Positions 26,636 through 55,743 are shown, counted from the first letter of the stretch. The stretch is 64,000 nucleotides of DNA from Patescibacteria group bacterium (GCA_038078255.1 JBBUEH010000002.1:7534-71533), one strand, 5' to 3'. The notes: a model not told the origin generated them from the letters alone. A program made the numbers and translations.

Positions 26636-26637
26636 TC

Positions 26638-26662
26638 CATACGGAGGCAACGCCTCCGTATG
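26638..26662 (+). terminator. Rho-independent terminator CATACGGAGGC-AAC-GCCTCCGTATG + TTATTTAT
   Basis: 11-bp perfect stem immediately after the 24725-26635 stop, followed by a T-rich tract. Confidence 0.65.
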
Positions 26663-26726
26663 TTATTTATACCCAGCTTCTTTTAATAATTTTTTTAGAA
26701 GATGAGCCGAGAATTAATTTCATAAA

Positions 26727-30839: not shown

Positions 30840-32084
30840 ATGCTAAACGATATGGAAAACGAAAATCAGATGGATAAAAATGACCACAGGATTATTGGCA
30901 AGGAACTGGACCTATTCACCTTTTCTGAGCTAGTTGGACCCGGACTTCCTATGTGGACGCCCAAAGGCACCGTACTACGAGAAGAACTAGACAAATTTAT
31001 TTGGGAACTCCGTGCTAAATATGGATATGAAAGAGTCACCATTCCCCACATAACAAAAAAGGAATTATACGAAAAATCAGGACATTGGGATAAATTTTCC
31101 AGTGAGCTTTTCCGAATTACTTCCCGTGAAGGCAAGGAGTATGCTATGAAGCCAATGAATTGCCCGCATCACACTCAAATCTTTAATCGTAAGCCGCATT
31201 CATACAGAGAAATGCCACAAAGATATGCGGAGACAACGATGGTTTATCGGGATGAACAATCTGGCGAGCTCGGAGGGTTGACCCGTGTACTTTCTATCAC
31301 TCAAGACGACGCTCATGTGTTCTGTCGAGAGGGTCAGATCAAGGACGAATTTCTAAAAATTTGGGATATTGTTGAAAAATTTTATAATACTTTTGGATTT
31401 AGTTTAAAAGTAAGACTATCTTTCCGTAATTTAGAGGAACCAGAAAAATATCTAGGCACGCCCCTGATTTGGAATAATGCTGAAAAAATCTTGCGGACTA
31501 TTGCGGAAGAACGAGGGGCAGACTATTTCGAAGGACCAGGCGAGGCGGCGCTCTATGGACCTAAATTAGACTTCATGGCAAAAAATTCTGCTGGACGAGA
31601 ATGGCAAGTGGCAACTATCCAGCTCGATATGAATTTGCCCGAACGATTTGATCTAACCTGTATAAATGAAAAAGGGGAGAAGGAGAGAATCACAATGATT
31701 CATGCCGCCATTGCGGGCTCCTTAGAGAGATGCGCAGCAATACTCATCGAACACTTTGCTGGAGCATTCCCTCTCTGGCTCTCACCCGTGCAAGTAAAAG
31801 TTATTCCGGTACGCACCAATCACAACGAATACGCAAAAGAAGTTTTTAAATTATTGAAAGAAAACAACATCCGGGCAGAATTAGATGATGCTGATGAAAA
31901 TTTGGGTTCCAGAGTCAGAGATGCGAAAACAAATAAAATCCCCTACTGGATAGTGATCGGGGACAAAGAAATAGAAGCACAAAAAGTCACATTAGAATCC
32001 AGAGACTCTGGCAACCTCGGTCAAATGTCTAAAGAAGACCTCCTTTCAAAACTTTTAACAGAAATAAAAGAGAAGAAAAACTAG
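30840..32084 (+). CDS. thrS: threonyl-tRNA synthetase, minimal form (catalytic + anticodon-binding domains only; no TGS/editing domains)
   Basis: Starts at the equivalent of the E. coli ThrRS catalytic-domain entry (HRIIGKELDLFTF). Class II motifs MNCPHHTQIF and motif 3; C-terminal anticodon-binding domain. 414 aa. Confidence 0.8.
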   Translation: MLNDMENENQMDKNDHRIIGKELDLFTFSELVGPGLPMWTPKGTVLREELDKFIWELRAKYGYERVTIPHITKKELYEKSGHWDKFSSELFRITSREGKEYAMKPMNCPHHTQIFNRKPHSYREMPQRYAETTMVYRDEQSGELGGLTRVLSITQDDAHVFCREGQIKDEFLKIWDIVEKFYNTFGFSLKVRLSFRNLEEPEKYLGTPLIWNNAEKILRTIAEERGADYFEGPGEAALYGPKLDFMAKNSAGREWQVATIQLDMNLPERFDLTCINEKGEKERITMIHAAIAGSLERCAAILIEHFAGAFPLWLSPVQVKVIPVRTNHNEYAKEVFKLLKENNIRAELDDADENLGSRVRDAKTNKIPYWIVIGDKEIEAQKVTLESRDSGNLGQMSKEDLLSKLLTEIKEKKN

Positions 32085-32179
32085 AATCTTATTCTAGGAA
32101 ATAAAAAATCGATCAAGGTTATGACCCCATCGTAAAGAAATTCTAATGCTTTTAATAAATTTTCCCTCGCATTTATCTA

Positions 32180-32213
32180 GTTTACTACTCTCACGGCCGT
32201 GAATATAGTAAAC
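32180..32213. repeat. 34-nt nested palindromic repeat GTTTACTAC-TCT-CACGGCCGTG-AATA-TAGTAAAC (copy 1; flanks the Cas2-like gene)
   Basis: Direct-repeat partner at 32811-32844 with about 80% identity. Both have the same CACGGCCGTG core and GTTTAC/GTAAAC arms. Confidence 0.6.
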
Positions 32214-32223
32214 AAATATAACT

Positions 32224-32802
32224 TTAAAGCTTATTTATCTTTTTCAATGTTCCCATTTTACTAATTTCAAAAATTTCAATATATTCTAAAATCTTTAGTC
32301 TCTCTAAATCTAATAAAAAATCCTTTGGAATTTTTACCTTTCCCACCCAAACACTTTGATGAATCATTTTAAATCCTAAGTTTTTAATAACTTCTCTAAG
32401 CCAATCTCTTTTTCGTCGAAGTTTTTCAGGAATATCAAAACTTATGATAATTGAACTGTTTTGAGTAAATACTTTATAATGTCGATCAGGGAAATTACTT
32501 TTTAATTTATCGAACTTTCTTCTTCCATCGCTAGATATTGTAAACTTTGCGTTCTCCTTTTTTATCAGACCATCGTGTTTCATCTTAGATATAAACACGA
32601 CTAGTCGTCTTTTCCTCTCTTTAAGATTTTCTACTTGAAACTTGTTGGATTCGGAAAATCTTTGACGCTTTTGGTATTCGTATTCAATTTTGCTTCCACT
32701 GGCTCCATAGCCGGCATCTAAGACAGCACCGAAAAAATCAACTTGGGTCATTGCTCCGTCGTGAAGAAGTTCTAGGGCTTTTAATAAAATCTCTCCTTTC
32801 AT
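32224..32802 (-). CDS. hypothetical wHTH + Cas2/VapD-fold protein
   Basis: C-terminal IIISFDIPEKLRRKRDWLREVIKNLGFKMIHQSVWVGKV..LERLKILEYIEIFEI follows the Cas2 beta1-alpha1-beta2 pattern (VSYDI..RRR..V...L..YG.RVQYSVFEC). The N-terminal roughly 100 aa look like a winged helix. RBS AGGAGA precedes the ATG. Confidence 0.4.
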   Translation of the reverse strand: MKGEILLKALELLHDGAMTQVDFFGAVLDAGYGASGSKIEYEYQKRQRFSESNKFQVENLKERKRRLVVFISKMKHDGLIKKENAKFTISSDGRRKFDKLKSNFPDRHYKVFTQNSSIIISFDIPEKLRRKRDWLREVIKNLGFKMIHQSVWVGKVKIPKDFLLDLERLKILEYIEIFEISKMGTLKKINKL

Positions 32803-32810
32803 ATATTCAA

Positions 32811-32844
32811 GTTTACCATACTAACGGCCGTGAGTACAGTAAAC
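32811..32844. repeat. 34-nt palindromic repeat (copy 2) GTTTACCATACTAACGGCCGTGAGTACAGTAAAC
   Basis: See 32180-32213. Confidence 0.6.
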
Positions 32845-32866
32845 ATTAGTACAAAGTAACATACTT

Positions 32867-35286
<2,420 letters not shown>

Positions 35287-35303
<17 letters not shown>

Positions 35304-36753
35304 CTAAATTTTTTTCTATTATTTTATTTCCTTCATTGTACGCCACATGCATTTCTTCCCCATTTTTCTTAAACACTGTTCCTATTTCAAAAATTTTTAT
35401 TTCACTTAGGCCTAGAAATGAGGCATTTATTTTATTTAATTTTACACTCTCCAGCAATCCATCACTCAAATTCGTTCTCAAGAATTTTTTATCAGAAGCA
35501 CTTTGCATAACTTCTACTTCGCCCTTATCTCTAAAAGTATAAGTCATCACTTCATTGTATCCATCAGCTAATAATTTCTTCCTCACCCATTCTATTTTGG
35601 CGTAAGTTTCATTTACTTTAGGTTTAAAGTTTATTTTAGGTATATTCCCTTTTATTTTATCGTAACCCAAAATTCTTCCTATCTCTTCCGCCATATCTTC
35701 TTCTATCTCTAAATCAAGGCGCATCATCGGCACAGTTATTTTGAATACTCCTTTGTTTTCTGTATATACAAAATTATATCTTTTCAAAATATCTTCAATC
35801 TCATCACTCGACACATTCAAACCTAAAATTTTAGAAATTCTCTCTGCTGAAAAAGAAAGCTTTCGCTCTGCCTGTTTCTCTGGATAAGTATCTACAATGT
35901 CTTCAAACACTGCCTCTGGACACATCTCTAGAACTAAAGCCGAGAGTTCATGCATGGCATATGACGCAAGCTCGGGTGATAAATCATTTTCGAAACGCTT
36001 TCTGGCATCGGTAAAAATATTAAGCGCTTGACCTGTTTTTCTAGCAAACACTGGATCAAAATTATCAGCTTCCAAAATAAGGTCGGTCGTGGAAGTCGTA
36101 ATTTCTGCGTATTTGCCTCCCTTGATGCCCGTATCAAGCGGATTTCCTTCTCCGTCAGAAATAATTACCATTGTATTATTTAATTCCTTTTCTTCTCCGG
36201 TAAGTAAAGTTATTTTTTGTCCATTTTGAGCAGCGTTAATATTTAATCGAGCACCCTTTACTTTATTCAAATCAAAAGCATGAGTGGGTTGCCCACAATC
36301 AAACATCACTAAATTCGTTGCATCTACTATATTATTTATTGATCTCTGCCCAATTGATTCTAAATGTTTTACTACCCACTCTGGTGAAGGACCAATTTTT
36401 ACATTACGCACAATGCGCCCGACATGTCTGCGATCTTTTGCTGTATTTATTTCTATTTTTAATTCAGTTGGCTTGGATTCTGGAATTTTATATTTTGCCG
36501 TTGGATCAACAAAGTTAATATTCAAAAGTGAGGCAAGTTCACGAGCAATGCCTAGATGAGAAAGTAGATCATGCGCCCGATTTGGCAAAATATTTATATC
36601 AAAAATAAAATCACCACCCCCAGCCCCCTCCTCCCCAAGGAGGGGAGTTAGACTCTCAACCTCAGCAATATGATAAGTAATAATATCTGCTAGCTTCTCT
36701 GCTTCTGGAGCATCCGGTATATACCATTTAAGCCAATTGTAAGAAATTTTCAT
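35287..36753 (-). CDS. pheT: phenylalanyl-tRNA synthetase beta subunit (reduced form), C-terminal domain split off
   Basis: N-terminal MKISYNWLKWYIPDAP... and B3/4 and B5 core. Carries an in-frame family-1 element (LLGEEGAGGGD). Confidence 0.8.
36613..36650 (-). repeat. family-1 GC-rich palindromic element in frame in pheT
   Basis: CTCCTCCCCAAGGAGGGGAG hairpin. Shares AAGGAGGGGGNTGGGGGTGGT with the rnr and recG copies. Confidence 0.6.
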
Positions 36754-43250: not shown

Positions 43251-43305
43251 TTACCAAAACTATAATTACACACGATCTAATATTTCAGAATAATACTTAA
43301 TAATA

Positions 43306-44319
43306 TTAATCTATTTCAATAGCGTTAATTTGAGCGTTATCCACAACTGTGATAAATTGAATTATAATTTGACCGCTTCCGTTTGCAGTAGCAGAAAAAC
43401 TTTTATCCACCGCCTTAAAATTAGACCCGACATCTTGAATTATATCAAAATTTGTAAGCACAGATGTGCCATTTATATTTACATTAAAAACTCTTTGTCC
43501 TGGGCTACTCCAAAAAATTTCTGCAAACTTTAGTATCACAGTATAAGATGCGCTAGGTGTTAGACCTGTTACAGTATAAGTCATATTTCCATATCTTAAG
43601 TCCTGATAAAGTGTCTGATCGCTAGTTCCGATAATGGAATTAGTCGTTGAATATAGACTTCCACCTGAAAAACTATTATCTGCGCTCCAACTTCTAGAAA
43701 GTGAATCTGTATAAGCTCCACCTCCAGAATTTATCAAAGCAACCGGTACGACTGAAGCCGCCCCAACCCCATAGCTAGCTTTAATCTCTCGTTCAATACG
43801 ATTCGGGTTAGATGAATTGCAAGAGGGATCGCCAATATTGTATCCTTTGGAAGTGAGGGTGGTGACGATAAAAGGAGGATCGATGGCGGCATCTTTAAAA
43901 ACACTTACCTTGGCGCAACTTGTCCCATTATTACTCAAACCAGTAACAAGAAAAGTGTAAAGTCCTGTATTAGTTCCGGCAGAATAAGTAGGTATGCCAG
44001 CTGCGCAAGTCAAGGCTGTGGCCGGCCCAGCTACGGAGAATTTACTAACGGGCTTATCATTCATGAGCGCGCATTCGATGCCAGTATCAGCCGCAAAAAA
44101 GGCTTCATTGGTGTCTTTCGCCGAAGTGCTAAATTTCATTTCTTTAAGCGTAATATTAGAAACACCCAAAGCTATTGCCAAAATAAGGCTGGAGAGCGTC
44201 ACGGCAAAAAGGATGACGAATCCTTTTTTATTTTTAATTTTTAATATTATTTTTATCATTTGATTTAACGAAATCATGCCGCGCAATCGTCCATTAAAGC
44301 GCAGCGCTATTCTATCCAA
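43306..44319 (-). CDS. large minor-pilin-like protein (PilX/GspK-like) with prepilin-type N-terminus
   Basis: KKGFVILFAVTLSSLILAI N-terminal hydrophobic segment; secreted beta-rich remainder. Confidence 0.45.
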   Translation of the reverse strand: MDRIALRFNGRLRGMISLNQMIKIILKIKNKKGFVILFAVTLSSLILAIALGVSNITLKEMKFSTSAKDTNEAFFAADTGIECALMNDKPVSKFSVAGPATALTCAAGIPTYSAGTNTGLYTFLVTGLSNNGTSCAKVSVFKDAAIDPPFIVTTLTSKGYNIGDPSCNSSNPNRIEREIKASYGVGAASVVPVALINSGGGAYTDSLSRSWSADNSFSGGSLYSTTNSIIGTSDQTLYQDLRYGNMTYTVTGLTPSASYTVILKFAEIFWSSPGQRVFNVNINGTSVLTNFDIIQDVGSNFKAVDKSFSATANGSGQIIIQFITVVDNAQINAIEID

Positions 44320-44927
44320 TTAAATAAATTCTCAGAAAAAACAACACTATAATTACCAGAACCCTGCGACCAAGAAACAGTGGAAATAATTTTTGTTTCG
44401 TCGGCGCTTACCACCACTGTTCTAATTTTTCTAGTTAGACCAGAAGCTGTCCCAGAAAAACCATATTTGCCTGTCGCAGAATTGTACAAAAGAGCTCCAT
44501 TGGAACAAGTAGAAGATGCGCAAGCAGTCAACGCAATATCAATCATTGGTTGGGTACTATCACTATAATTTAAACTATCAGCGTTAATATAACAACCGTT
44601 CACCCCGTTGCAGGCAGAAATATCAACCAGGGTGGCATTAAAATTATTCCAGCCTGTCTGCGCTCCGCCAGAATAAAGCATATAAGTATCCCGCATATTT
44701 CTCATATATTCAACACCCTCTTGCGCCAAATATGAAGCAATGACTTTCCTTTTGGCATAGCCTGTATTGGAAATCCCTTGAGCTAAAATCCCAAGCAATG
44801 CCAAAATCGATGCGGTAAAAATTGAAACAGCCACCAGCATTTCTACTAAAGTAAAGCCCCGCCTGCAAAAGCTATGCTTTAAGCATGGCGGGCAGGCCTT
44901 CTTCTTTTGTTTGCGAAAAAGTTTCAT
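44307..44927 (-). CDS. type IV (pseudo)pilin-like protein with 24-aa leader containing an in-frame family-2 palindromic insertion
   Basis: CRRG/FTLVEMLVAVSIF prepilin cleavage motif and hydrophobic helix. The leader MKLFRKQKKK[ACPPCLKHSFCRR]G. Confidence 0.6.
   Translation of the reverse strand: MKLFRKQKKKACPPCLKHSFCRRGFTLVEMLVAVSIFTASILALLGILAQGISNTGYAKRKVIASYLAQEGVEYMRNMRDTYMLYSGGAQTGWNNFNATLVDISACNGVNGCYINADSLNYSDSTQPMIDIALTACASSTCSNGALLYNSATGKYGFSGTASGLTRKIRTVVVSADETKIISTVSWSQGSGNYSVVFSENLFNWIE
44859..44897 (-). repeat. family-2 GC-rich palindromic element (39 nt = 13 codons) inside the prepilin leader
   Basis: GCCTGCCCGCCATGCTTAAAGCATAGCTTTTGCAGGCGG, homologous to 48197-48268 and 60076-60114. 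Confidence 0.65.
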
Positions 44928-44936
44928 GGTTATTTT

Positions 44937-45569
44937 TTAAACATCTATCAACCTTTGAGACACTGAAGTTTGAAGTGAAAAAGGCGTTGCGATATTATTA
45001 ATGGTGACGGTGCCGACCAATCTGATGGTGACAAAAGGTTGTTGCTGATTTCCGACTGGCGCCTCGGCGCCCAGAATGGAAAAAGATGAAGCAGTGGTAT
45101 TGACAACAACCTCATTTGGAGTTAACTGAACAAAATTAGAAAGAATATAGGGTCCTTGAGTAGACTTAAAAAGTTTTCCAGTGCCATCAATATAATAAAC
45201 CCATTGATCGTTAGTCACACCAGGATCAGGATCACCAAAGGCATATTCGAAGGCGATACCCCAGCCACTTGCGCAACTCTTTGGATCATCCATGATGGGA
45301 GAGTTATCACTACTTGGGATCGTGTCCCCCGAGACAAAGCAGTGATAATTATACCCTGTCCTTAAATTTCTAGACATATCTTCCATCACAAAACTTAAAT
45401 TATCCAGAATCGAACGCATGGTCTGCGATTTACGATGAACTGCGTTCGCATTTAAAAGAACTCCCATGCCCGTCATGACCACCACCAGAAAAATAGAAAT
45501 CGAGATCATTGTTTCTATTATCGTGTATCCCTGATTTAATTTATGAATTTTTTTCAAAAATAATTTCAT
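44937..45569 (-). CDS. type IV minor pilin / pseudopilin
   Basis: NQG/YTIIETMISISIFLVVV prepilin N-terminus. Confidence 0.55.
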   Translation of the reverse strand: MKLFLKKIHKLNQGYTIIETMISISIFLVVVMTGMGVLLNANAVHRKSQTMRSILDNLSFVMEDMSRNLRTGYNYHCFVSGDTIPSSDNSPIMDDPKSCASGWGIAFEYAFGDPDPGVTNDQWVYYIDGTGKLFKSTQGPYILSNFVQLTPNEVVVNTTASSFSILGAEAPVGNQQQPFVTIRLVGTVTINNIATPFSLQTSVSQRLIDV

Positions 45570-45583
45570 TACTTTTTAATTAC

Positions 45584-46237
45584 CTAATTCACCTGCACCC
45601 TGCCTGAAGGATAAAGTTTTATTTTAGCAGTCGCTCCTTTGGGAGAAAGAATATTGATCTCGACATAATAAATCGAGGAGGCAAGAGGAGGATTTGATTT
45701 AATGATAGCGCCTGAGTTGGGTCTCATAAAGGTGACTGTGAGATTATTTATGGGATTAGGGGTGGTCGGAGTGCCGGAATAAAAAACATTCATGCTAGAA
45801 ATAGTGTTGCCCTTGGTAATGGTGATTTTCTCTAGACATTCCCCAGTGCCCGGACAAGTAGAAGCTTCATATAAACCGTTTTGTGAAGGATTTTTAAAAT
45901 CAGTGAAAAAAGTAAAACTTTTATTGTCCGCTATCCGATCGACAAAAACTCCATAAGACGGTTTCCAGGTTGGATCACTACTCGTATAGGTACTTTGGGC
46001 GACTGGAGGGAATTTACCAGAAAGAGATGCTTTCTGCGCTTCCACTACTTTCAAAGCGATATCACTGGCCAAAATTTTAATATCTATCTGCGCTTGAAAT
46101 CCTCCGTAATTATAAACAACGATAGAAGACATGACCGAAATAATAGACAGGACAACAATCAGCTCCACATAAGTCATTCCCCCATTCTTTTTTAATTTTT
46201 TTAATAAAAGTAACATAAAATTAAAAACCAACAGCAA
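45584..46237 (-). CDS. type IV minor pilin / pseudopilin
   Basis: KKNGG/MTYVELIVVLSIISV prepilin N-terminus. Confidence 0.55.
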   Translation of the reverse strand: MLLVFNFMLLLLKKLKKNGGMTYVELIVVLSIISVMSSIVVYNYGGFQAQIDIKILASDIALKVVEAQKASLSGKFPPVAQSTYTSSDPTWKPSYGVFVDRIADNKSFTFFTDFKNPSQNGLYEASTCPGTGECLEKITITKGNTISSMNVFYSGTPTTPNPINNLTVTFMRPNSGAIIKSNPPLASSIYYVEINILSPKGATAKIKLYPSGRVQVN

Positions 46238-47036
46238 AAAAGTTTAACTGCAAGACAAACGCTACGAATGCGCCACCAACCAAATATATAGCAAAAGGAA
46301 TTTCACTTTTCATTCCGTAACCCCAACCATAAATCTTGGAGAAGAAAATAAGCCCAAGCCCGGTCAGGGCTCCAGAAAAAAAAGCCAAGACAAGGGCAGA
46401 AAGCACAGCCGGGAAACCGAGGAGCCATCCGAGTCCTAAAATAAGTTTAGCGTCTCCGAGACCCATCCAAGCGCCCCGAGACACAAGCCAAAGCAGAGCA
46501 AAGGGTAAGGCTACTAATATTCCAGACAAAAATTCTAACAACGAAGGAATATGCGGAAAAAATCCATAACTATTATTAAAGATAAATAAACCAAAAAACG
46601 CTAAAATTCCAAAAAGAAAAACAAGGGTGTCGGGAATTATCTTATGCCTTAAATCATAAACTGCAACAATCATTAGAATAGAAAACATGCTGGCGTAATA
46701 TAAATAAGAAATGACGAAGTCTAGAATAGATAAAAGAAAAAGATCTTGAAACTTAAAAAACAAAATAACGAAAATTAAGCCAGTGATGACTTCAACCAAG
46801 GGATAGATGTGTGATATTCGTGTCTGACAAGTTCTACATCTTCCTTTAAGAGCCAGAAAACTAAACAATGGCACAAGATCATACCAAGCAAGATTGTACT
46901 GACAAGACATGCAGGCGCTTCTTCCACCAAAAGATTTTTTGGTATTGAGCCGGCAAATTACAACATTTAAAAAACTCCCAATAATAAGACCCAGAATAAA
47001 GAAAACAAAAGAAATGAGAGGAAGAATGGATATCAT
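46221..47036 (-). CDS. pilD: prepilin peptidase (A24 family, PilD/ComC)
   Basis: Polytopic membrane protein; the IGSFLNVVICRL and LGDAKLILGLG Asp-containing motifs are characteristic of A24. Confidence 0.85.
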   Translation of the reverse strand: MISILPLISFVFFILGLIIGSFLNVVICRLNTKKSFGGRSACMSCQYNLAWYDLVPLFSFLALKGRCRTCQTRISHIYPLVEVITGLIFVILFFKFQDLFLLSILDFVISYLYYASMFSILMIVAVYDLRHKIIPDTLVFLFGILAFFGLFIFNNSYGFFPHIPSLLEFLSGILVALPFALLWLVSRGAWMGLGDAKLILGLGWLLGFPAVLSALVLAFFSGALTGLGLIFFSKIYGWGYGMKSEIPFAIYLVGGAFVAFVLQLNFFAVGF

Positions 47037-47047
47037 TTTAAATTATG

Positions 47048-47575
47048 TTAATTGCAAGTAAAACTGCTACTATTGATAGCTCCTGCGGGGACAGAATTTA
47101 CCATTTTGGCTGTTCCTGTAGTATCTACGCACCAAGAAGTGCCTAGTGTTAATTTCAAGCCCACGGCCACAGCCCAAGCATTGGCGGAGTTATAACAAGA
47201 ACTGCCATTGCCTCTCTTGATTGCTTCGGCTAAAGCATCAGCGATAACTTTGTCTTTAGACAGCATGTTGGTCCCCTGTGGGTCATAGTTAGGACAAGCG
47301 CCAGCAACATTAACGCCACCAGCTGGCAAATATGAATTAAGATTATTCAGAAAAAAAATTTCAGCCACTTGTCGCAAGGTAGCTAAATTAGTCTTGACAG
47401 CTGTATCATTACCTTTATTCCTAGCATCACCCGAGTTAACTAAAATAACTGACGCCAAAACACCGATAATCGCCACGACAACTAAAAGTTCAATCAAGGT
47501 AAACCCGCCCCCCTTCGGGGTCACACCAAATTTTGGTGTGCGGGTAAATCCTTTTTCTAAATTTATTTTTTTCAT
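47048..47575 (-). CDS. type IV pilin with 24-aa leader carrying a 36-nt palindromic insertion flanked by a 9-bp direct repeat
   Basis: MKKINLEKGFT[RTPKFGVTPKGGGFT]LIELLVVVAIIG, with the canonical G/FTLIELL processing site. Confidence 0.75.
   Translation of the reverse strand: MKKINLEKGFTRTPKFGVTPKGGGFTLIELLVVVAIIGVLASVILVNSGDARNKGNDTAVKTNLATLRQVAEIFFLNNLNSYLPAGGVNVAGACPNYDPQGTNMLSKDKVIADALAEAIKRGNGSSCYNSANAWAVAVGLKLTLGTSWCVDTTGTAKMVNSVPAGAINSSSFTCN
47498..47551 (-). repeat. palindromic mini-insertion CGCACACCAAAATTTGGTGTGACCCCGAAGGGGGGC flanked by direct repeats GGATTTACC / GGGTTTACC (TSD-like)
   Basis: Perfect palindrome CACACCAAA|TTTGGTGTG plus ACCCGC/GCGGGT outer arms. Insert plus one DR is 45 nt (15 codons) and duplicates the GFT cleavage tripeptide. 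Confidence 0.65.
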
Positions 47576-47627
47576 AAAAATTTATTAATACTTATAATAC
47601 TTTATATTATATCACATCTAAAAACAC

Positions 47628-47665
47628 AAAAACCACCTTTTGTGGTCTTACTTAAGGTGGTTTTT
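47628..47665 (-). terminator. Rho-independent terminator AAAAACCACCTT-loop-AAGGTGGTTTTT between the two pilin genes
   Basis: 11-bp stem with a U-run on the minus strand after pilin 47688-48086. Confidence 0.65.
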
Positions 47666-47687
47666 GAAAAACAAAATTTATGTTTTA

Positions 47688-48086
47688 TTATGGACAAACT
47701 GTAATAGCCCCTAACCCTGCGGCAGTTGATTTTGAGGTTCCTGTACTATCTACACACCAGCCGCCAGAAGATTTTAGGCCCGCCCATCCGGCCCACGCAG
47801 TAGCACTGGCTGTACATACTCCTCCATTACCCCCTGCCAATACAGCTGCAGCTTGAGCTTTGGCCATATTTGCATCAGCGCAAACTCCTGTGTAAGTTGA
47901 TCCTATATCGTAGAACAACTCAGCCTGTGCTCTCATATTTGCCAAGTTTGCCTTGACGGCCGCATCGGCGCCTTTGGCCCGCGCAGTGTTTAGTGATGCC
48001 AAAACAACCGAGGCAAGAATCCCGATTATTGCAACAACCACCAAAAGTTCAATCAATGTAAAACCTTTTTTAAAGTTCATTTTCAT
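47688..48086 (-). CDS. type IV pilin (canonical short leader)
   Basis: MKMNFKKG/FTLIELLVVVAIIGILASV; C-terminal Cys pair. Confidence 0.8.
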   Translation of the reverse strand: MKMNFKKGFTLIELLVVVAIIGILASVVLASLNTARAKGADAAVKANLANMRAQAELFYDIGSTYTGVCADANMAKAQAAAVLAGGNGGVCTASATAWAGWAGLKSSGGWCVDSTGTSKSTAAGLGAITVCP

Positions 48087-48196
48087 AATTATTTAAACTA
48101 TTAATAATACCTATAATAATAATTCGACTTGTTTTTATTTTTAATAGTTAAATTATAACACAAGAAAGAAAACATAACGCAAGAAAGTTATCCACA

Positions 48197-48268
48197 CCTG
48201 CCCGCAATGCTTTCAGCATACCCGCCAGCAACGCTTCGCATAGCGATGCGGGCTGGGCCTGATGCAGG
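48197..48268. repeat. family-2 GC-rich palindromic element, intergenic copy (with internal expansion)
   Basis: CCTGCCCGCAATGCTTTCAGCATACCCGCC...CGCATAGCGATGCGGGCTGGGCCTGATGCAGGCGGG. Same termini (CCTGCCCGC[A/C]ATGC...GCAGGCGGG) as the 44859 and 60076 copies. Confidence 0.6.
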
Positions 48269-48285
48269 CGGGATCTAGCTAATTT

Positions 48286-49494
48286 CTAGCTAATTGACCC
48301 AGCCAAATTGTAAATCGGTATTAAGATAGAAACAAGCAATATTCCAACAGCTAAACCTAAAACCACAATCATCACTGGCTCTATCAAGCCGACCAATGTA
48401 TCAATTGCATCATCTACTTCCCGTCTGTAGAAATTTGTTAAAGTTTTTAAAATAGTTCCGAGCGAACCTGTTTCTTCACCCACTTGCACCATTTGTACTA
48501 GAATATTTGGTATTTCATTTCTATGTTTTGAAAGCGCAATAGAGAAAGATAAGCCAGACTTTACTCCATCCGCCACTTCTCTGAGGGCGCTTTTATATAC
48601 AAGACTGCCGACAACATTCGCAGTAATGTCTATCGCTCGAACTATCGGCACACCCGAAGTCAGCATTGTATCCATATTGTCCGTTACTCTAGAGAGATAA
48701 AGTTTTCTATAAAGATTGCCTATAAGAGGCATAGATATGCGCATTCCATCTAAATATTCTTTTCCTCTTTCTGTAGAAGATAGTCGCCAAAGCCAAATAG
48801 AGAGAAGCACCAAAAAAATCAGAACAATGAAACCGTAATTAACAAAAAAGGTCGAAATCGCTATAACTATCTGAGTATAGAAAGGCACCTCTTGTCCAGA
48901 ATCCAGAATGATTGCGGAAAGTTTCGGGATCACCAACACAAACATCAGAGTCATCACAACAAAAAAAGTAATAATAACAAAAATTGGATAGATGAGCGCA
49001 TTTCGAGCTTTAGAAGTAAGGACATATTGGCGATCTAGGTATTCTGCTAAATGTAAGAATGTTTGATTTAACTTCCCCGTTTCTTCACCCACCTTCACCA
49101 TGTTGATATAAAAATCTGAAAATACATCAGGATGGTGAGCCAGAGCCCCAGAAATGGAGCTCCCTGCTTGAAGATCGTCGGTGATTTCTGTGAGTTTACG
49201 ACTCAAAAGTTTGTTTTCCGTATTGGTTGCAAGCATAGTAAAAGATTTGAGCGCCGAGACTTGCGCTTCAAATAAAGTTGCAATTTGACGAGACAGAATC
49301 ACAATCTCTCTGTTTGATATTTTTTCAAACAGAGAATGAGAAAAAAATGATTTGGCTTCTGTCTCGTCTTTAATGGAAATAATGACAAATCCCCTTCTCT
49401 GGAGTCCGCTAATTGCCATATCACGATTGGGCGCGTCAATGTCTCCTTCTTTATTTACTCCCCCATCATCAATTGCTTTATATTTAAATAACAT
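48286..49494 (-). CDS. pilC: type IV pilus assembly platform protein PilC (GspF family)
   Basis: Two T2SS_F repeats and three transmembrane helices. Confidence 0.9.
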   Translation of the reverse strand: MLFKYKAIDDGGVNKEGDIDAPNRDMAISGLQRRGFVIISIKDETEAKSFFSHSLFEKISNREIVILSRQIATLFEAQVSALKSFTMLATNTENKLLSRKLTEITDDLQAGSSISGALAHHPDVFSDFYINMVKVGEETGKLNQTFLHLAEYLDRQYVLTSKARNALIYPIFVIITFFVVMTLMFVLVIPKLSAIILDSGQEVPFYTQIVIAISTFFVNYGFIVLIFLVLLSIWLWRLSSTERGKEYLDGMRISMPLIGNLYRKLYLSRVTDNMDTMLTSGVPIVRAIDITANVVGSLVYKSALREVADGVKSGLSFSIALSKHRNEIPNILVQMVQVGEETGSLGTILKTLTNFYRREVDDAIDTLVGLIEPVMIVVLGLAVGILLVSILIPIYNLAGSIS

Positions 49495-49520
49495 AATTGT
49501 TGTTCCACATGTCGGACTTG

Positions 49521-50579
49521 TTATATCATGCGCTTGAGTCCTTTGGGATTAAGGGAATACTGGTAAGCATTTTCTATCGAAATTTCACCGGAGCGCACCA
49601 ACTCCGTGAGAGAATGATTCAAATCTATCATGCCAGACTCTGATCCTGTTTCTATAACCACATTAATTTCATGCGTCCGTTTCTCGCGAATTAAATTCGA
49701 CACAGCATTATTGTTTAAAAGAAGTTCGTAAGCAGGAATCAGTCCCCCAGCAATTCTGGGTAGAAGTCTTTGGGAGAAAATCCCGAGCAACGAAGATGAA
49801 AGCTGAACCCGAATTTGATCTTGCTGATCGCCCGGAAAGGAATCAATAATTCTATCTATGGTCTGCGCAGCATTGTTGGTATGGAGAGTAGAAAGCACAA
49901 GATGTCCAGTTTCAGCCGCCGTCACTGCCGTGGCCATGGTCTCTGGTGTACGCATTTCGCCGATCATTATAACATTCACATCTTCCCGAAAGACAGATCG
50001 AAGCGCAATGTGAAAATCTTTAGTATCAATGCCCACCTCTCTTTGACTGATGATAGATTTATTAGGTATATAAACATGCTCAATCGGATCTTCGATAGTA
50101 ATAATGTTGCAAGCTTTTTCGTTGTTAATTAAATTAACCATAGCCGAAAGAGTAGTTGACTTTCCTTGTCCCACAGGACCCACCACTAGGAAAAATCCTT
50201 GTTTCTTGCAAGCTAGATCAGCCAAAATAGGAGGTAAATTTAATTCTTTCAGAGTCTTCACCTTCGGCACCAAACGAAAAGCCATACTAATCAAACCTTT
50301 TTGGAAAAAAGCATTGCCTCGAAGTCGAGCCTTCCCGTGAAAATCATAAGAAAAATCTACTTCTTGGTTTTTCATAAACGCATCAACTTTTTGTTTTTCT
50401 AACACCTCACCCAAAACACCCATCATATCTTCTTGGGTAAAAACTTGGTGTTTGACTAAAAAGATCAGCTCTCCGGACAGACGAATAGCCGGCACTCGTC
50501 CTGCGCCAAGATGCAAGTCTGAACCATTTTCATTAATCACAGTTGAAATAAGATCTTCTAGTTCTTTTTTATAATCCAT
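49521..50579 (-). CDS. pilT: twitching-motility retraction ATPase PilT
   Basis: 352 aa; Walker A GPVGQGKST; PilT-type Asp/His boxes. Confidence 0.85.
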   Translation of the reverse strand: MDYKKELEDLISTVINENGSDLHLGAGRVPAIRLSGELIFLVKHQVFTQEDMMGVLGEVLEKQKVDAFMKNQEVDFSYDFHGKARLRGNAFFQKGLISMAFRLVPKVKTLKELNLPPILADLACKKQGFFLVVGPVGQGKSTTLSAMVNLINNEKACNIITIEDPIEHVYIPNKSIISQREVGIDTKDFHIALRSVFREDVNVIMIGEMRTPETMATAVTAAETGHLVLSTLHTNNAAQTIDRIIDSFPGDQQDQIRVQLSSSLLGIFSQRLLPRIAGGLIPAYELLLNNNAVSNLIREKRTHEINVVIETGSESGMIDLNHSLTELVRSGEISIENAYQYSLNPKGLKRMI

Positions 50580-50590
50580 GTGTTTTTGTT

Positions 50591-50992
50591 TTATTTCGGA
50601 ATGACAATTTTCTTAGATAAAATATTGACTACTTCGTTGATGACTTCGAGCGGAGTAGAATTGGCCTTGATGATATAGCCCGACACTCCTAATTTGTTTC
50701 CTCGCTCCACATCTGCCTGTTCGCTCTTGTTGGATAAAATTATTTTCACCGAATCCGGAGACAAATTATCTTTATTTATTTTTTCTAACATCTCAAAACC
50801 ATCCATTTCAGGCATTATGATATCAACTAAAAAAATGTTCGGCTGAAGCCCACTTTTAATTTTTTCGATAGCTTCTACGCCATTCTCTGCTGTATAAACA
50901 TCGAAATTATTCTGGCTAAATTTCAATGCATACATGTCTAAAAGAAAATTATCATCATCTACTATCAAAATTTTTCTTTTTTCTCCTTCCAT
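50591..50992 (-). CDS. single-domain response regulator (CheY/PilH-like REC)
   Basis: KILIVDDDNFLLDMY...VDIIMPEMDG; a stand-alone receiver domain. Confidence 0.8.
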   Translation of the reverse strand: MEGEKRKILIVDDDNFLLDMYALKFSQNNFDVYTAENGVEAIEKIKSGLQPNIFLVDIIMPEMDGFEMLEKINKDNLSPDSVKIILSNKSEQADVERGNKLGVSGYIIKANSTPLEVINEVVNILSKKIVIPK

Positions 50993-51053
50993 ATTATATT
51001 AGACAATTATACTACAAAACGGCTTTGAATTGGCTTGAGTGTGGATAACTCCC

Positions 51054-52802
51054 TTATTCATTTTCATTACTAAAATTATACACTTCGGTAAAAGGAATCG
51101 TTCCTTGGATAGATTTGAGCATGGCGTCTTCTTTCATCATCAGCATTCCATTCTTGCGAGCTACTTTATAAATTTCTCCATTGGTAGGACTTTTTAATAT
51201 GACATTTTGCATTTCTTTGTCTACATTAAACATTTCAAAAACAGCAATACGGCCCCTTGTGCCAGAAGGACAATCGTTCGATGGAACGGTGTCATACATT
51301 TGCCCCTTAATTCCAATTTCCTGTTTAAATTTATCTGGCAAATCTTTCATCTGCTCTTCAATTTGCATTTTAATGCTTTCGTCCATCGGCACAAGTTTGC
51401 GTGAAGACGGACAAGTAAGACGAGCTAGACGTTGCGCCACGGACAGAATCAGAGTGGGCGCAATTAAATACGGATCAACTCCCATGTCCACCAAACGAGG
51501 CACTGCGCCGATGGCGTTGTTGGTATGTAAAGTGGAGAGAACCAGGTGTCCAGTCAAAGCCGCTTGAATGGCCAATTGAGCTGTTTCTTTGTCACGAATT
51601 TCTCCAACCATGATGATGTCCGGATCTTGCCGAAGAACGGAACGAAGTCCGGAAGCAAAAGTATATCCAATCTCCGGCATCATTTGCGACTGATTCACAT
51701 CGGGCATGTGATATTCCACGGGATCTTCGAGAGAAACAATGTTGCTTTTTTCTTTATCCAGTTCGTTCATCATGGAGTAAAGAGTGGTAGATTTTCCAGA
51801 TCCGGTCGGACCAGTAATTAGAATGAGTCCGTACGGTTTCTTGATCGCCTCTCGCATCATGTTCAGATTTCTTTCTGAGAGACCTAATTGATCTAAAGGT
51901 TTTACCCCCTTTTCAGAATCGAGAATTCGCATGACCACCTTTTCTCCATAATATGCCGGCAGAGTAGAAACACGAAAATCAATTTTCCGTCCATCAATAT
52001 TGGCGCTGAATGATCCATCTTGGGGTTTTCTTTTCTCATCTAATCGAAGTTTGGATAAAATTTTCACTCGGGCTACTATCCCACTGTAAATATTTGGTGG
52101 CAACATTATGGTAGTGCGCAGAATTCCATCCACTCGAAAACGCACTTTCACCTTTTCTCCAGTGTGTTCAATATGGATGTCGGAAGCGTTGCCCTCTATC
52201 GCATTACGCAAGATAACCGCCACGATCTTGATCACCGGGGCATCTTCGACTATTTTCTTTTCTTCGCCTGATTTGACACCCTTGATTTCTTTACTTAAAT
52301 TTTCTTCACTTACATTTTTAGCATCAAATGACTCATCGTCCCCGAACTCTCCCAAGGCTTCATCTACTTGACTCGACAAACCTTTATAAGTTTCTAAAAT
52401 ACTCTCAAAGTCGCTCTTGGAAATAAGAAAAATCTTAAAGGGAATGCCTTCTTTGGCAGAAATAAATTGCAAAGCATCCATCGCTTGCATATTTTCCGGA
52501 TCCGTAATGCCCACCTCGAGCACCCCATCCTTTAGTTCAATTGGAGCAAAATGATAATGCGTGGCTGAGTCTTCCGAAATATATTTTAATACATCAAAGG
52601 GGTGTTTCTGTTGATCAATTTTCTTAATAGGAATTTGCAAATATTTCCCTTTGATTTCAAGAATTTTTTCTTCCGTTATGCCAGATTCGATTAATGCTTC
52701 GTCTATGTCTCCATTATATTTCTCTTTGGCCCGAGTTTTTATATCACCTATTTGGCTTTTTTGAATTACATTTTCTTTTACTAACTCTTCTAAAAAACTC
52801 AT
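51054..52802 (-). CDS. pilB: type IV pilus assembly ATPase PilB (GspE family)
   Basis: GspE N-terminal domains; Walker A GPTGSGKST; tetracysteine motif. Confidence 0.9.
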   Translation of the reverse strand: MSFLEELVKENVIQKSQIGDIKTRAKEKYNGDIDEALIESGITEEKILEIKGKYLQIPIKKIDQQKHPFDVLKYISEDSATHYHFAPIELKDGVLEVGITDPENMQAMDALQFISAKEGIPFKIFLISKSDFESILETYKGLSSQVDEALGEFGDDESFDAKNVSEENLSKEIKGVKSGEEKKIVEDAPVIKIVAVILRNAIEGNASDIHIEHTGEKVKVRFRVDGILRTTIMLPPNIYSGIVARVKILSKLRLDEKRKPQDGSFSANIDGRKIDFRVSTLPAYYGEKVVMRILDSEKGVKPLDQLGLSERNLNMMREAIKKPYGLILITGPTGSGKSTTLYSMMNELDKEKSNIVSLEDPVEYHMPDVNQSQMMPEIGYTFASGLRSVLRQDPDIIMVGEIRDKETAQLAIQAALTGHLVLSTLHTNNAIGAVPRLVDMGVDPYLIAPTLILSVAQRLARLTCPSSRKLVPMDESIKMQIEEQMKDLPDKFKQEIGIKGQMYDTVPSNDCPSGTRGRIAVFEMFNVDKEMQNVILKSPTNGEIYKVARKNGMLMMKEDAMLKSIQGTIPFTEVYNFSNENE

Positions 52803-52809
52803 AATTAAA

Positions 52810-53241
52810 TTACGGGGTTAGGGGTGGAGCTGGATTAGTTGTGGGAGGAACTGTGGCTGGAATTCCGGTGGTGGCTGGAGCGGTAGTATCTATAGGTGGC
52901 AACACCACAACATCGGTGCCAATTGGAGCAAATGGATTAGGTCTACCTTCATTGCCATCTGGAATCAGAATAATGCTGGAGTCATGCAAAGAACGAAAGG
53001 CATTGCTAGAAAAAATAGCATCGTTTAATTTAATATTTTTAACATTTAAAAGAAGAGCCAAAAATTCTTGAGCGATAGCTGAAGTGTCGCCAGAAATTGT
53101 AGTCATTGGTTCCTGCGAATCCGGCAAAGAAGAGACCAACGAAGCATCTTCGTCCGGAGAAGCCTTGATGAAAAAAATATAAACTAAGACGAGAATTATT
53201 CCAATCACTAAGAATATTATTATGTTTTTTATTTTTGGCAT
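52810..53241 (-). CDS. membrane-anchored Pro/Thr-rich protein (PilP-like position)
   Basis: N-terminal transmembrane helix and C-terminal PATTGIPATVPPTTNPAPPLTP. Confidence 0.35.
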   Translation of the reverse strand: MPKIKNIIIFLVIGIILVLVYIFFIKASPDEDASLVSSLPDSQEPMTTISGDTSAIAQEFLALLLNVKNIKLNDAIFSSNAFRSLHDSSIILIPDGNEGRPNPFAPIGTDVVVLPPIDTTAPATTGIPATVPPTTNPAPPLTP

Positions 53242-53254
53242 TTTTGATTTTATT

Positions 53255-53878
53255 TTAATTTTTTAACCAATAAGTTTTAATTTTGAAACTATATTTGTAA
53301 ACCTCGTCACTGGATAACTTGCCGACCAGAGGAGCCACCCTGGTATCTGTAGACGAAAATTGGACGGCTGCTATGTCTACAATCCTCAGGTTGCTTTGGA
53401 GATCTCTTGAAAAATGAAGAAAATTATTGTAAGTACCCATGGTGGAAAATTCTAAATTCCAGATCCCATAATCCTTTTGCAAAGCCGGATCTACTGCGCC
53501 CCCTTGAATATCTCCCGCCGGCAGAGATTTACTAGGATCTGTTGTAACCTTCTTCATGGGTGTATCGTATTTCACATCTTTCAGCGTCATGCCATACGGA
53601 GAAGCTACTTGTTCTATTTCTAGAATCAGGCGAATGTTGTCAATATTTTCGGGCAAAAGTTTTTGGAGTTTTATCAAATCCTCTGGATTAATAGAATTAT
53701 ATTTGGCTGTTAGTTTGTCTCTTTCATTTTCAAGCATTTTGGAATTATTTAAAGCTTCGTCATAAGACGCCACCTCTGTTCGCAAAAGAGAAATGCTGTT
53801 GTAAATAGGATGAGTAAAGACGAAAAAAACAGCGATGGAAACTCCTACTAAAATGATGGGGGTAATGAATCTTGTCAT
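53255..53878 (-). CDS. PilO-like pilus assembly protein
   Basis: Single N-terminal transmembrane helix, coiled coil and periplasmic domain. Position after the PilN-like gene. Confidence 0.45.
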   Translation of the reverse strand: MTRFITPIILVGVSIAVFFVFTHPIYNSISLLRTEVASYDEALNNSKMLENERDKLTAKYNSINPEDLIKLQKLLPENIDNIRLILEIEQVASPYGMTLKDVKYDTPMKKVTTDPSKSLPAGDIQGGAVDPALQKDYGIWNLEFSTMGTYNNFLHFSRDLQSNLRIVDIAAVQFSSTDTRVAPLVGKLSSDEVYKYSFKIKTYWLKN

Positions 53879-53892
53879 AAAAATAAAATAAA

Positions 53893-54489
53893 TCAGCTCT
53901 CCACCTCGAGGGTGGTTTTGTAATCAAATAAAAGCGGATCGACCATAAATTCTAAATCAAAAAGCACACTGCCTTTGTCGTCCAACGAAAGATTGAAAAA
54001 AATGGGATCAATCAAATTTCTATTTTGAGCAAAGAGATCAGACTGAAGCGCCACCGAACGATACCCTATTGCCTGTCCGCTCATTTTAATAGTAACAATT
54101 CTGGTTTGATCACCCTTGAAATCATAACTGAATTTCGTATAACGAACGGTTTTCATCGTAATAGCTTGGAGCGCCTCGAAAATGGGAGTCACCGCAATGT
54201 GTTTTGCTAAAATTTCCTCCGATGCGTCCAAGCGCCTGCTCAACACTTGAAGTTCTGTTATTTTAGAAGGCTCAAAACGATTTTTGGCCAAAGTGAGATC
54301 GCTTTCCATCTTGACCAGACTGCGAGCCACAATCTTTTTATAAAAATAAAGACCAGCGGAAGTGAGTAGGATTGAAAATAATATAAAAATAGAGACAACC
54401 GAAAAAATACCAAAAGATCGGGGTGCTCCCACCCGTTCGTCGATCATGGGCTTTTTAGGTATAAATGATGTTTGAAAATTCGGTTCCAT
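53893..54489 (-). CDS. PilN-like pilus assembly protein
   Basis: Short cytoplasmic N-terminus, transmembrane helix and periplasmic domain; directly follows pilM. Confidence 0.45.
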   Translation of the reverse strand: MEPNFQTSFIPKKPMIDERVGAPRSFGIFSVVSIFILFSILLTSAGLYFYKKIVARSLVKMESDLTLAKNRFEPSKITELQVLSRRLDASEEILAKHIAVTPIFEALQAITMKTVRYTKFSYDFKGDQTRIVTIKMSGQAIGYRSVALQSDLFAQNRNLIDPIFFNLSLDDKGSVLFDLEFMVDPLLFDYKTTLEVES

Positions 54490-54581
54490 TTTACCCTACT
54501 ATTATATTACAAAAACAATTTTAAATGAAGTATGTTGTGTATAACTTTAAGTAATAACCGTAATTTTGTCGATTATTATGT

Positions 54582-55721
54582 TTATTGAAGTTTTCGCAAC
54601 GCAAGCCCAATCGCTACTCCAAATTCGGGACCGATATTTTGCAGTACTTTTTCTAAGAATGCCGGAGTGTTCACTTTCGAGAACGGGTGACCCACTTCTA
54701 TTTCTGCTCGAAGATTGTTGGCCGCTACTTCGACTAATCCCTTTAAAAGAGCTCCGCCACCGGTGAAGATTACTTTGCTGATAGTCCTATTGTACTTTTT
54801 CTCATATCCCAATAACACATTATTGATTTCAGCAAAAATATAATCAAGGTGCACTCTGATAATATCCGGCAAACCCTTTTCTGCTCCATTTTCAAAAAGA
54901 CCAAACTCTTTTTTCATCTTTTCCGCTTCGAAAAATGGAATGCTGAGAGCGGTGGAAATAGAAGTGGAGATGTCCGCTCCTCCCCTCTCGATGGTGTGAT
55001 AACTCTTGATCATGCCAAATTCGACAATAGAAAGTTTCGTCCGAGCGGCGCCGAAGTCTATCAACAACACTGGGGAAAGTTCATGTTCAAAATTAGCTCT
55101 AATGGAAGAAAATATTTCAATCTCAAAAAAGGAAGCAGTCAGAGAAGATTCTGAAACAATGGAGCGAAATTTGGAAATAGCATCATTTTGAGTGGCCACA
55201 ACAAGCACATTTTTCTTTTCTTCGGATTGAGCTGAAACATTGGAATCACTCACTTCTTTATTCATCTCTTCAAAAGAAGCTTCTTTCTGGGGTAAAACAA
55301 AATAATCCAGAGAAACTTCTGTCATGGCTATCGGAATATATTTACGAGCTTCGGTCGAAATTATCGTCGGCATTTCACTCTCGGACACTTGACCCGGAAG
55401 CGAAATGGAAAAAATCAAACTAGCCTGGACTGGGATAGCGAAGGCTCCTTCGGTACTACTCACCCCGGACTGCTTGAAAACTTCTTTGATGGCTTCGGCT
55501 ATTTTAAAAACTGGAAGATTCGTCACACTTCCAGCAGGGAGAGTGGCATAGGGGCCTAGAGCGATTGTTCCGTAAGTTTCCAGTATTGCTTTGCCTCTCT
55601 TTTTTTTAATCTCCACGATCTTGATGGCTGAAGAACCTATGTCAATACCGACAGCGCTCCCTTCTGCGCTACTTCCAAGATTGCTGATTTGTTCGAAAAA
55701 ACTTTTTAATGGATTACGCAT
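54582..55721 (-). CDS. pilM: type IV pilus assembly protein PilM (actin-like ATPase)
   Basis: VGIDIGSSAIKIVEI actin-fold phosphate-1 motif. Trimmed to Met at 55721; the longer track ORF overlaps comF. Confidence 0.8.
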   Translation of the reverse strand: MRNPLKSFFEQISNLGSSAEGSAVGIDIGSSAIKIVEIKKKRGKAILETYGTIALGPYATLPAGSVTNLPVFKIAEAIKEVFKQSGVSSTEGAFAIPVQASLIFSISLPGQVSESEMPTIISTEARKYIPIAMTEVSLDYFVLPQKEASFEEMNKEVSDSNVSAQSEEKKNVLVVATQNDAISKFRSIVSESSLTASFFEIEIFSSIRANFEHELSPVLLIDFGAARTKLSIVEFGMIKSYHTIERGGADISTSISTALSIPFFEAEKMKKEFGLFENGAEKGLPDIIRVHLDYIFAEINNVLLGYEKKYNRTISKVIFTGGGALLKGLVEVAANNLRAEIEVGHPFSKVNTPAFLEKVLQNIGPEFGVAIGLALRKLQ

Positions 55722-55743
55722 TCGTGTTAAGATTATAACATAT

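Follow-up and report, generated by a model that had tools for sequence, protein, structure and literature searches.

What is the function of a small gene that is enclosed by two copies of a 34-nt palindrome and whose product resembles in part the CRISPR protein Cas2? The question is raised by a 64,000-nt stretch of DNA from a Patescibacteria group bacterium (hereafter the window), in which a 192-aa gene, here called X, occupies positions 32224-32802 on the minus strand. The initial annotation had placed the gene and both palindromes exactly where we find them, and had considered that they may be a solitary Cas2-like nuclease or regulator acquired as a cassette. The palindromes, GTTTACTACTCTCACGGCCGTGAATATAGTAAAC at 32180-32213 (downstream of X) and GTTTACCATACTAACGGCCGTGAGTACAGTAAAC at 32811-32844 (upstream of X), are 82% identical to each other. 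A search of the 64 kb for GTTTAC-N7-ACGGCCGT-N7-GTAAAC with up to three mismatches detected just these two matches (0 in 100 shuffles), and no further copy was present in the window, every other site being at least 13 mismatches away from the family consensus. It had also been noted that CRISPR components are missing, and this was confirmed: no CRISPR-like array was found across the window, and no cas gene, cas1 included, was found among the neighbours of X at 46 loci, all of which are housekeeping genes (gyrB and thrS in the window). We conclude from the results described below that X and its palindromes most likely constitute an undescribed regulator-and-site system, and not a CRISPR component, an ordinary terminator or a recent cassette.

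Residues 119-184 of X matched the Pfam family PaaX_M (PF20803, "PaaX central Cas2-like domain") with E=3e-12 and 46.9 bits against a cut-off of 24. The Cas2 models fell short of their cut-offs (PF09827, 20.1 bits vs 23.8; TIGR01573, 21.9 bits vs 24.5), the full-length PaaX equivalog TIGR02277 gave 12.8 bits against a cut-off of 264.55, and a defence-system library returned weak Cas2 matches. In the AlphaFold model of X (pLDDT 85.8, pTM 0.48), residues 112-188 follow the order β1-α1-β2-β3-α2-β4-β5, and the N-terminal half consists of long helices, a β-hairpin wing and one more helix. The best structural matches were Cas2 proteins and E. coli PaaX, with 3exc and 2ivy among the fold hits, and the root-mean-square deviation from the Cas2 fold was ~2 Å across ~65 residues. 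The Cas2-like C-terminal half proposed earlier is borne out by the PaaX_M match, the modelled topology and the structural matches; the proposed architecture as a whole, a winged helix-turn-helix (wHTH; ~residues 1-105, probably PaaX-like) joined to the Cas2-fold PaaX_M domain (~residues 112-190), is supported as well. PaaX_C is absent from X, which stops at residue 192. The sequence S-F-D-I-P-E at the end of β1 is invariant or nearly so in the family; F122-D123-I124 aligns with positions 7-9 of PF09827; conservation at D123 is 90% or more, and S-F-x-x-P-E around it does not vary. No HUH/Y1, transposase or integrase signature was detected in X, which matched just PaaX_M, Cas2 and weak wHTH families, and searches of PDB sequences with X gave spurious matches and nothing else. 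X belongs to neither Cas2 proper nor PaaX proper; its family is a separate one of two domains, with the PaaX_M/Cas2 fold in common with both, and, judged by analogy, it appears to work most like PaaX. Proteins of the family are variously named "hypothetical", "PaaX" and "CRISPR-associated endonuclease Cas2" in the databases, where the protein of the window has an identical entry as a hypothetical protein of a Patescibacteria metagenome-assembled genome (MAG); the latter two names are misleading.

More than 400 relatives of X were found, 166-214 aa in length (mostly 184-200 aa) and all from Patescibacteria-type genomes. They carry PF20803, which was matched in 117 of the 117 relatives scanned, and some add weak matches to PF09827 or PF14277. 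X loci were recovered from 46 species-level genomes, with three or four paralogues in several MAGs, and they sit in at least five conserved housekeeping contexts: gyrB > X > (rdgB) < thrS, which is the class of the window; msrA .. X < nrdB < nrdA; kbl > X > typA; obg > X > gatB; and < corA X > grpE > dnaK. The gyrB-X-thrS order is common to ~20 diverged genomes, the X proteins of which are 55-72% identical. No recombinase or integrase was found among the recurrent neighbours of the 46 loci, and no relatives were found on viral contigs. We found no description of the X family, its palindromes or a Cas2-wHTH fusion in the searchable literature, which is incomplete.

A palindrome of ~34 bp is present on both sides of X at nearly all loci, including those with as little as 35% protein identity, and its sequence is specific to the class of X: GTTTAC..ACGGCCGT..GTAAAC in class A, which includes the window, TCTTAC..GTAAGA in class B, and GTCTAC..GTATATGC..GTAGAC, TGTCAAGTATCTCACGATCGTGAGATACTTGACA and others elsewhere. 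The upstream and downstream copies of one module are on average 82% identical, and palindromes are ~40% identical between modules whose proteins are less than 50% identical (Spearman 0.73). The paralogues of one genome retain different palindromes, and the segment of X that was aligned by eye to the recognition helix of PaaX varies along with the outer hexamer. Across 81 distinct sites the consensus is GTTTAC TATACT n ACGGCCGT n AGTATA GTAAAC, with nearly every position conserved. Pairing between the N7 arms was slightly above that of a partner-shuffled control (4.37 vs 3.98 +/- 0.10); the idea that these arms vary freely with compensatory changes was rejected, as N7 overall follows a sequence consensus in spite of a few perfect variants. 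The two palindromes of the window fold as RNA with energies of -9 to -16 kcal/mol (z -2.3 to -4.6), and no Rfam family matched the palindromes. An RNA hairpin had seemed to be indicated by G-U wobbles in the two window copies; this was discarded as chance, since the strand bias is absent family-wide, where the mismatched arm positions on the sense strand comprise 69 G-U and 80 A-C. The lack of a G-U excess, together with a sequence consensus at nearly all positions, favours the view that the palindrome is a duplex-DNA site.

The upstream copy overlaps promoter-like sequences. In classes A and B, its right arm plus one base reads TAnnnT at 21 of 23 loci and TGnTAnnnT at 16 of 23, and the ATG of X is located 6-8 nt past the arm. 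In the window, the palindrome right arm plus 1 nt forms the extended -10-like element TGGTAAACT (32810-32818, minus strand) 7 nt ahead of the start codon, and the palindrome itself, which ends 8 nt from the ATG, is the proposed operator over the core promoter of X. The stop codon of gyrB (32867-34972), the conserved upstream neighbour on the strand of X, is 22 nt from this palindrome. The close spacing of the ATG behind the -10-like element suggests that X mRNA is leaderless or near-leaderless. Classes C/D and E differ: here a -35 box (TAGACA or TTGACA) occupies the right arm, and the -10 is found at a spacing of 16-18 nt; for class E this also applies to the downstream copy ahead of grpE-dnaK. 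In the Wolfebacteria-type loci (L035 and L038-L042 of our set of relatives, at ~3400-4300 or 4900-5800), which are arranged as < corA, palindrome, X, palindrome, grpE, dnaK, both 34-bp palindromes are perfect and each supplies a TTGACA -35 with its -10 at 16-18 nt. This arrangement suggests that the Wolfebacteria-type paralogue controls the chaperone operon.

The downstream copies of classes A and B, which are palindromic one base further out, showed the -10 combination in neither direction at any of 24 loci. We rejected the notion that the downstream palindrome is the promoter of the next gene, since this absence is accompanied by a convergent downstream gene at about half of the loci; such a role holds solely for the Wolfebacteria class. 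Neither window copy is associated with a T-tract, and no terminator-like site was found in 31900-33100. The palindrome is not an ordinary intrinsic terminator, as it is without a T-tract and its sequence consensus is kept across 81 sites. The initial annotation had allowed that the repeat might be a common terminator family unrelated to the gene; the palindrome does occur at the 3' ends of other genes, but it is related to X, since its type co-evolves with the protein, its upstream copy serves as the apparent promoter and operator of X, and the T-tract is lacking.

The occurrence of the palindrome away from X was examined by scanning metagenome contigs with the class A pattern. Of 63 stretches recovered, ~21 were X modules and the rest were palindromes without a nearby X. 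Exact matches on long contigs amounted to ~1 per 100-200 kb, and solo copies were within ~6 kb of an X module on several contigs. Where genes were present on both sides, 18 of 28 solo sites were between convergent genes, compared with a background of 18.5% (p=1e-7), and 25 of 26 were no more than 12 nt past a stop codon (range 1-12 nt, median 4 nt). Solo copies tended to be more perfectly palindromic than module copies (p = 0.07-0.12). At the MazG/DHFR/ThyX junctions, the palindrome matches at 28-34 of 34 positions, against 67-87% identity of the flanking proteins; this retention despite protein divergence argues that the solo sites are maintained. Their neighbours encode MazG-like, DHFR, ThyX, PyrF, cytidylate-kinase-like (Cmk-like), Fpg, Xth-type nuclease, RecR, RecG, dnaE-like, UvrD-like helicase and SMC-like proteins. 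When the solo loci (L048-L108) and the X modules, with gyrB, rdgB and nrdAB, were taken together, ~13 of 40 neighbour families had a theme of DNA or nucleotide metabolism, a raw count in which neighbourhood effects, synteny and repeated sampling are included.

Solo sites are not found in all genomes. The SMC junction of the window, orthologous to one that bears a solo copy, carries an unrelated GC hairpin and a T-rich tail instead of the palindrome. Convergent junctions of the window at 26636-26726 and 3865-3889 contain the perfect hairpins CATACGGAGGC-AAC-GCCTCCGTATG, with a T-rich tail, and GAAGCTTTGAGCAAGG-ACTAC-CCTTGCTCAAAGCTTT, respectively. Both hairpins are unrelated and site-specific, so these genomes have ordinary hairpin 3' ends in addition to the palindrome family. 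In L068 (6079-6130) and L070 (5274-5325), compared with L061, short repeats of the ACGTATATACGT type adjoin the solo palindrome of the SMC junction, and the copy number of this block differs between otherwise identical contigs.

The repeated unit in the window proved to be longer than the 34 nt first described: the palindromes are real, but they are part of a duplication of ~130 nt between 32085-32214 and 32715-32845 (83% column identity). On the strand of X, the downstream palindrome is followed by 7 nt, an ATG and an X-type N-terminus of ~25 codons, degenerate and frameshifted. This stub (32095-32172, minus strand) contains the ATG, a frameshift and an early stop, with ..LLKALEFLYDGVITLIDF.. 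encoded in the shifted frame, and tblastn matched it to the N-terminus of X at 32108-32158; no similar stub was found by tblastn at the other loci examined. It is identical at 86 of 112 positions to the 5' end of X in the window and at 91 of 113 to X of L001 in another genome (77-80%). A recent self-duplication was rejected as its origin, as the stub is equally close to both genes. Since its similarity to X of the window is about that to an orthologue in another genome, the stub is best read as the remnant of an old second X in tandem and not as a fresh duplication. The downstream palindrome of the window is a promoter-type copy (TAAACT, 7 nt and the stub ATG), which fits the front end of a decayed second X gene.

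Both presence and absence of X were observed at two junction types only. Between the dnaE-like gene and pth (dnaE-like > < pth), L083 has a solo palindrome and L023 has palindrome-X-palindrome. Downstream of the UvrD-like helicase gene, the window has neither, L078 has a solo palindrome, and L005, L064 and L109 have the full module. These two polymorphic junctions and the tandem relic of the window indicate that X may occasionally be duplicated or deleted by recombination at the palindromes, or inserted into them.

PaaX of E. coli (8a39, 3L09; PF07848, PF20803 and PF08223), the phenylacetyl-CoA-responsive repressor of the paa operon, is among the known systems closest to X. It is reported to bind TGATTC-N27-GAATCA and, by occlusion of RNA polymerase, to shut down its own promoter (PMC9493321). 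The two proteins share PaaX_M, on which E. coli PaaX scores 33.5 bits and X 46.9, and the GTTTAC-N22-GTAAAC of X, where binding is predicted, overlaps its own extended -10 or -35 in all classes, as the PaaX site does at Px. PaaX differs in being a 316-aa protein of three domains (N, M and C, with PF08223 at 190-280), whereas X lacks PaaX_C, its N-terminal half is unscored by PF07848 and carries a ~25-aa helical insertion, no paa genes are nearby, and the family is confined to Patescibacteria with several paralogues per genome. X also has a second site after the gene and solo sites at gene 3' ends.

We propose, giving the proposal about an even chance, that X is a "mini-PaaX", an autorepressor with a few cognate sites that are probably protein-backed transcription barriers. 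X would be a dimeric, sequence-specific binder of double-stranded DNA in which the Cas2-fold domain serves as the dimerisation module, possibly with a ligand-sensing role, and two PaaX-type winged helices would read the outer hexamers of GTTTAC-TATACT-n-ACGGCCGT-n-AGTATA-GTAAAC. That X binds the 34-bp palindrome of its own class is very probable. On the upstream copy, X would occlude RNA polymerase at the extended -10, as PaaX does at Px, and we consider it probable that X represses its own, leaderless transcript in this way. The "regulator" option of the initial annotation is thereby supported. At the second copy, which family-wide is located just past the stop codon of X, and at a few solo copies per genome past the stop codons of other genes, the protein-DNA complex and the RNA hairpin of the site could form a barrier or insulator against read-through transcription; the assignment of such a protein-backed barrier function to the copy after X and to the solo copies is tentative. 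In the window, the downstream palindrome would also have been the operator and promoter of the second tandem X, now a 75-nt stub.

Several observations weigh against this proposal. The N-terminal half of X is below significance against the Pfam PaaX-N model (PF07848), the AlphaFold model has two long N-terminal helices and is not a textbook wHTH, and the geometry between the domains is uncertain (pTM 0.48). The aspartate of SFDIPE aligns with the catalytic aspartate of Cas2, which may leave room for nuclease activity. Sites at gene 3' ends are atypical for a repressor. The modest extra complementarity of N7 hints at DNA-level dynamics beyond those of a pure repressor, as does the presence or absence of X at two junction types. 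The co-evolution and the correlation between helix and hexamer are confounded by phylogeny. The architecture, the fold, the distribution of the sites, the co-evolution and the promoter overlap are observed, and every functional step, namely binding, repression and barrier function, is one that we infer.

The main rival explanation, which we regard as unlikely, is that the palindrome, present in few copies, is a non-autonomous element that moves or homogenises itself, comparable to repetitive extragenic palindromic (REP) sequences, and that X is a domesticated single-copy enzyme for its mobilisation or maintenance, comparable to the RAYT proteins. No HUH/Y1 (IS200-like) transposase or integrase signature is present in X, and we know of no Cas2 or PaaX_M protein that transposes DNA. 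The palindrome appears to be present in few copies per genome, as judged from metagenome contigs, and the module copies stand alone in the 64 kb, in contrast to the tens to hundreds of REP/REPIN-RAYT systems; the solo sites are stable at the same junction over 67-87% protein identity, and the upstream copy doubles as a promoter to which it is clearly adapted. Nevertheless, X shows three hallmarks of RAYT genes: it is flanked by its own repeat as RAYT genes lie between REPs, the repeat type is specific to each paralogue, and several distinct paralogues coexist in a genome (PMC3337134). The likeness extends to vertical inheritance in fixed synteny and to repeats that are extragenic and at gene 3' ends. 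The palindrome is present or absent at orthologous SMC and helicase junctions, as X is between palindromes, the aspartate at the Cas2 catalytic position is conserved, the window has a relic of tandem duplication at a palindrome, and the same genomes hold another palindromic insert, in frame, in gyrB and pheT. A further possibility, that X is an enzyme acting on DNA which nicks its own palindrome or integrates there, is quite unlikely; palindrome-gene-palindrome would then be a staggered, repeat-duplicating insertion with the geometry of CRISPR spacer integration, and the solo copies would be targets or scars. The likeness to Cas2 itself comprises the ferredoxin-like β1-α1-β2-β3-α2-β4 core, the alignment of F-D-I of X with Y-D-I of Cas2 at the end of β1 and, formally, a repeat-insert-repeat layout with 34-bp partly palindromic repeats in which the "spacer" is the gene; X differs in falling below both curated cut-offs, in being fused to a wHTH and in lacking cas1, an array and cas genes. 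The original idea of a recently acquired palindrome-X-palindrome cassette, with the palindromes as duplicated attachment sites or terminators, was not borne out and is now highly improbable. The module is indeed AT-richer than its flanks (27-35% vs ~40% GC), but we found this unconvincing as a sign of acquisition because similar dips occur elsewhere. The gyrB-X-thrS synteny has been kept in ~20 genomes as X diverged to 55-72% identity, no integrase or recombinase is nearby, no viral-contig relatives were found, the upstream copy is an adapted promoter, and the downstream copy is the promoter-type copy of a decayed paralogue. These features also separate X from integron attC and other site-specific cassettes, since its loci are without a recombinase, lie in conserved housekeeping operons and are polymorphic at only two junction types. 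A weaker form of the cassette idea may survive, as these junctions occur both as palindrome-X-palindrome and as a single palindrome.

The remaining explanations place the function elsewhere. If the palindromes acted as transcript hairpins, that is as 3'-end stabilisers, terminators or processing sites that X binds or cleaves, including those of its own mRNA, one would expect the stable RNA folds of both window copies, the location of solo copies exactly where 3'-end hairpins are found and the slightly raised complementarity of N7, and RNases exist among Cas2-family proteins (3exc and 2ivy in the fold hits). However, no excess of G-U over A-C was seen on the sense strand, sequence and not merely pairing is conserved at nearly all positions, no Rfam family matched, and the Wolfebacteria arm is a -35 box between divergent genes. 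Since the right arm contains the -10 and the ATG comes 6-8 nt later, the upstream copy would lie outside the X transcript, and the wHTH and PaaX-like operator geometry suit duplex DNA, so we consider the RNA-level explanation improbable. A chromosome-level role, with X and its sites as replication-fork or topological barriers or as nucleoid anchors, has a precedent in the B. subtilis replication terminator protein (RTP), a winged-helix protein that binds ~30-bp Ter sites and autoregulates through a site beside its gene. The low-copy 34-bp sites, one of them over the X promoter, the neighbours rich in DNA metabolism (gyrB, SMC-like, dnaE-like, recG and recR) and the solo copies at most ~6 kb from the module on several contigs would fit such a role. 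The sites are symmetric, however, so that any barrier would be non-polar, and the several paralogues per genome, each with different sites, and the Wolfebacteria grpE-dnaK promoters fit transcription control better; we view a chromosome-level role as very unlikely. Least credible of all is a coincidence of ordinary intrinsic terminators with an unrelated Cas2/VapD-like toxin or defence protein. Solo copies are placed like terminators and the defence-system library gave weak Cas2 matches, but the sites have no T-tract, their sequence rather than their structure is conserved, their class-specific co-evolution with X extends over at least five gene contexts, and no partner gene, cas1 or array is present.

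The Wolfebacteria-type loci invite comparison with HrcA-CIRCE, in which a wHTH repressor controls the hrcA-grpE-dnaK chaperone operon through an inverted repeat. The palindrome-X-palindrome-grpE-dnaK arrangement, with each palindrome supplying a -35 box, is similar; X is not an HrcA homologue, however, the 34-bp palindrome is not CIRCE, and the likeness concerns one paralogue class and not the gene of the window.

Other features of the window and its relatives were observed in the course of this work. The downstream neighbour of X, the convergent thrS (30840-32084, plus strand), is a short form of 414 aa that matches the ThrRS model from position 164 on, with the N-terminal region missing; in relatives with the same synteny thrS encodes 580-588 aa in several cases and ~412-417 aa in others. 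In L002 and L014, the gyrB upstream of X encodes 1124-1132 aa and has an intein-like insert with homing-endonuclease-like sequence after ..SAGGC. Within gyrB of the window, a perfect 32-nt palindrome, GAGGTTCTTCCTCCACTTGGAGGAAGAACCTC, is located in frame at 34278-34309. The element is also present in gyrB of L007 (700-731) and, in frame and with compensatory changes, in pheT of L006 (1930-1961) and L080 (6908-6941); pheT of the window is without it. It resembles a palindromic insertion that preserves the frame, and recalls the Rickettsia palindromic elements. The pheT gene of the window is apparently split into a 102-aa open reading frame (ORF; 34995-35303) and an overlapping 488-aa ORF (35287-36753), whereas in relatives it is a single ORF of 607-628 aa. 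A frameshift, a mistake in the assembly or a real split of the gene might account for this. As judged from ORF translations only, 43300-55800 contains a long co-directional type IV pilus or pseudopilin-like cluster, with N-terminal GFTLIELLVVVAIIG motifs and ATPase-like ORFs.

If X were catalytically active on its palindrome, it would represent a REP/RAYT-like system built on a Cas2 fold and would bear on the origin of Cas2 and CRISPR repeats; as an enzyme that nicks or integrates there, it would stand for a new, domesticated class of palindrome-mobilising system in Patescibacteria and might be a surviving relative of whatever gave rise to the Cas2-plus-repeat module. If, as we propose, the copies at gene 3' ends are protein-backed barriers, they would amount to a dedicated, sequence-specific insulation of convergent genes in bacteria. 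Patescibacteria have tiny genomes with very few recognisable regulators, and the X family supplies regulators for which the DNA sites are already identified, so that these regulator-site pairs are directly testable in vitro for organisms that are unculturable.
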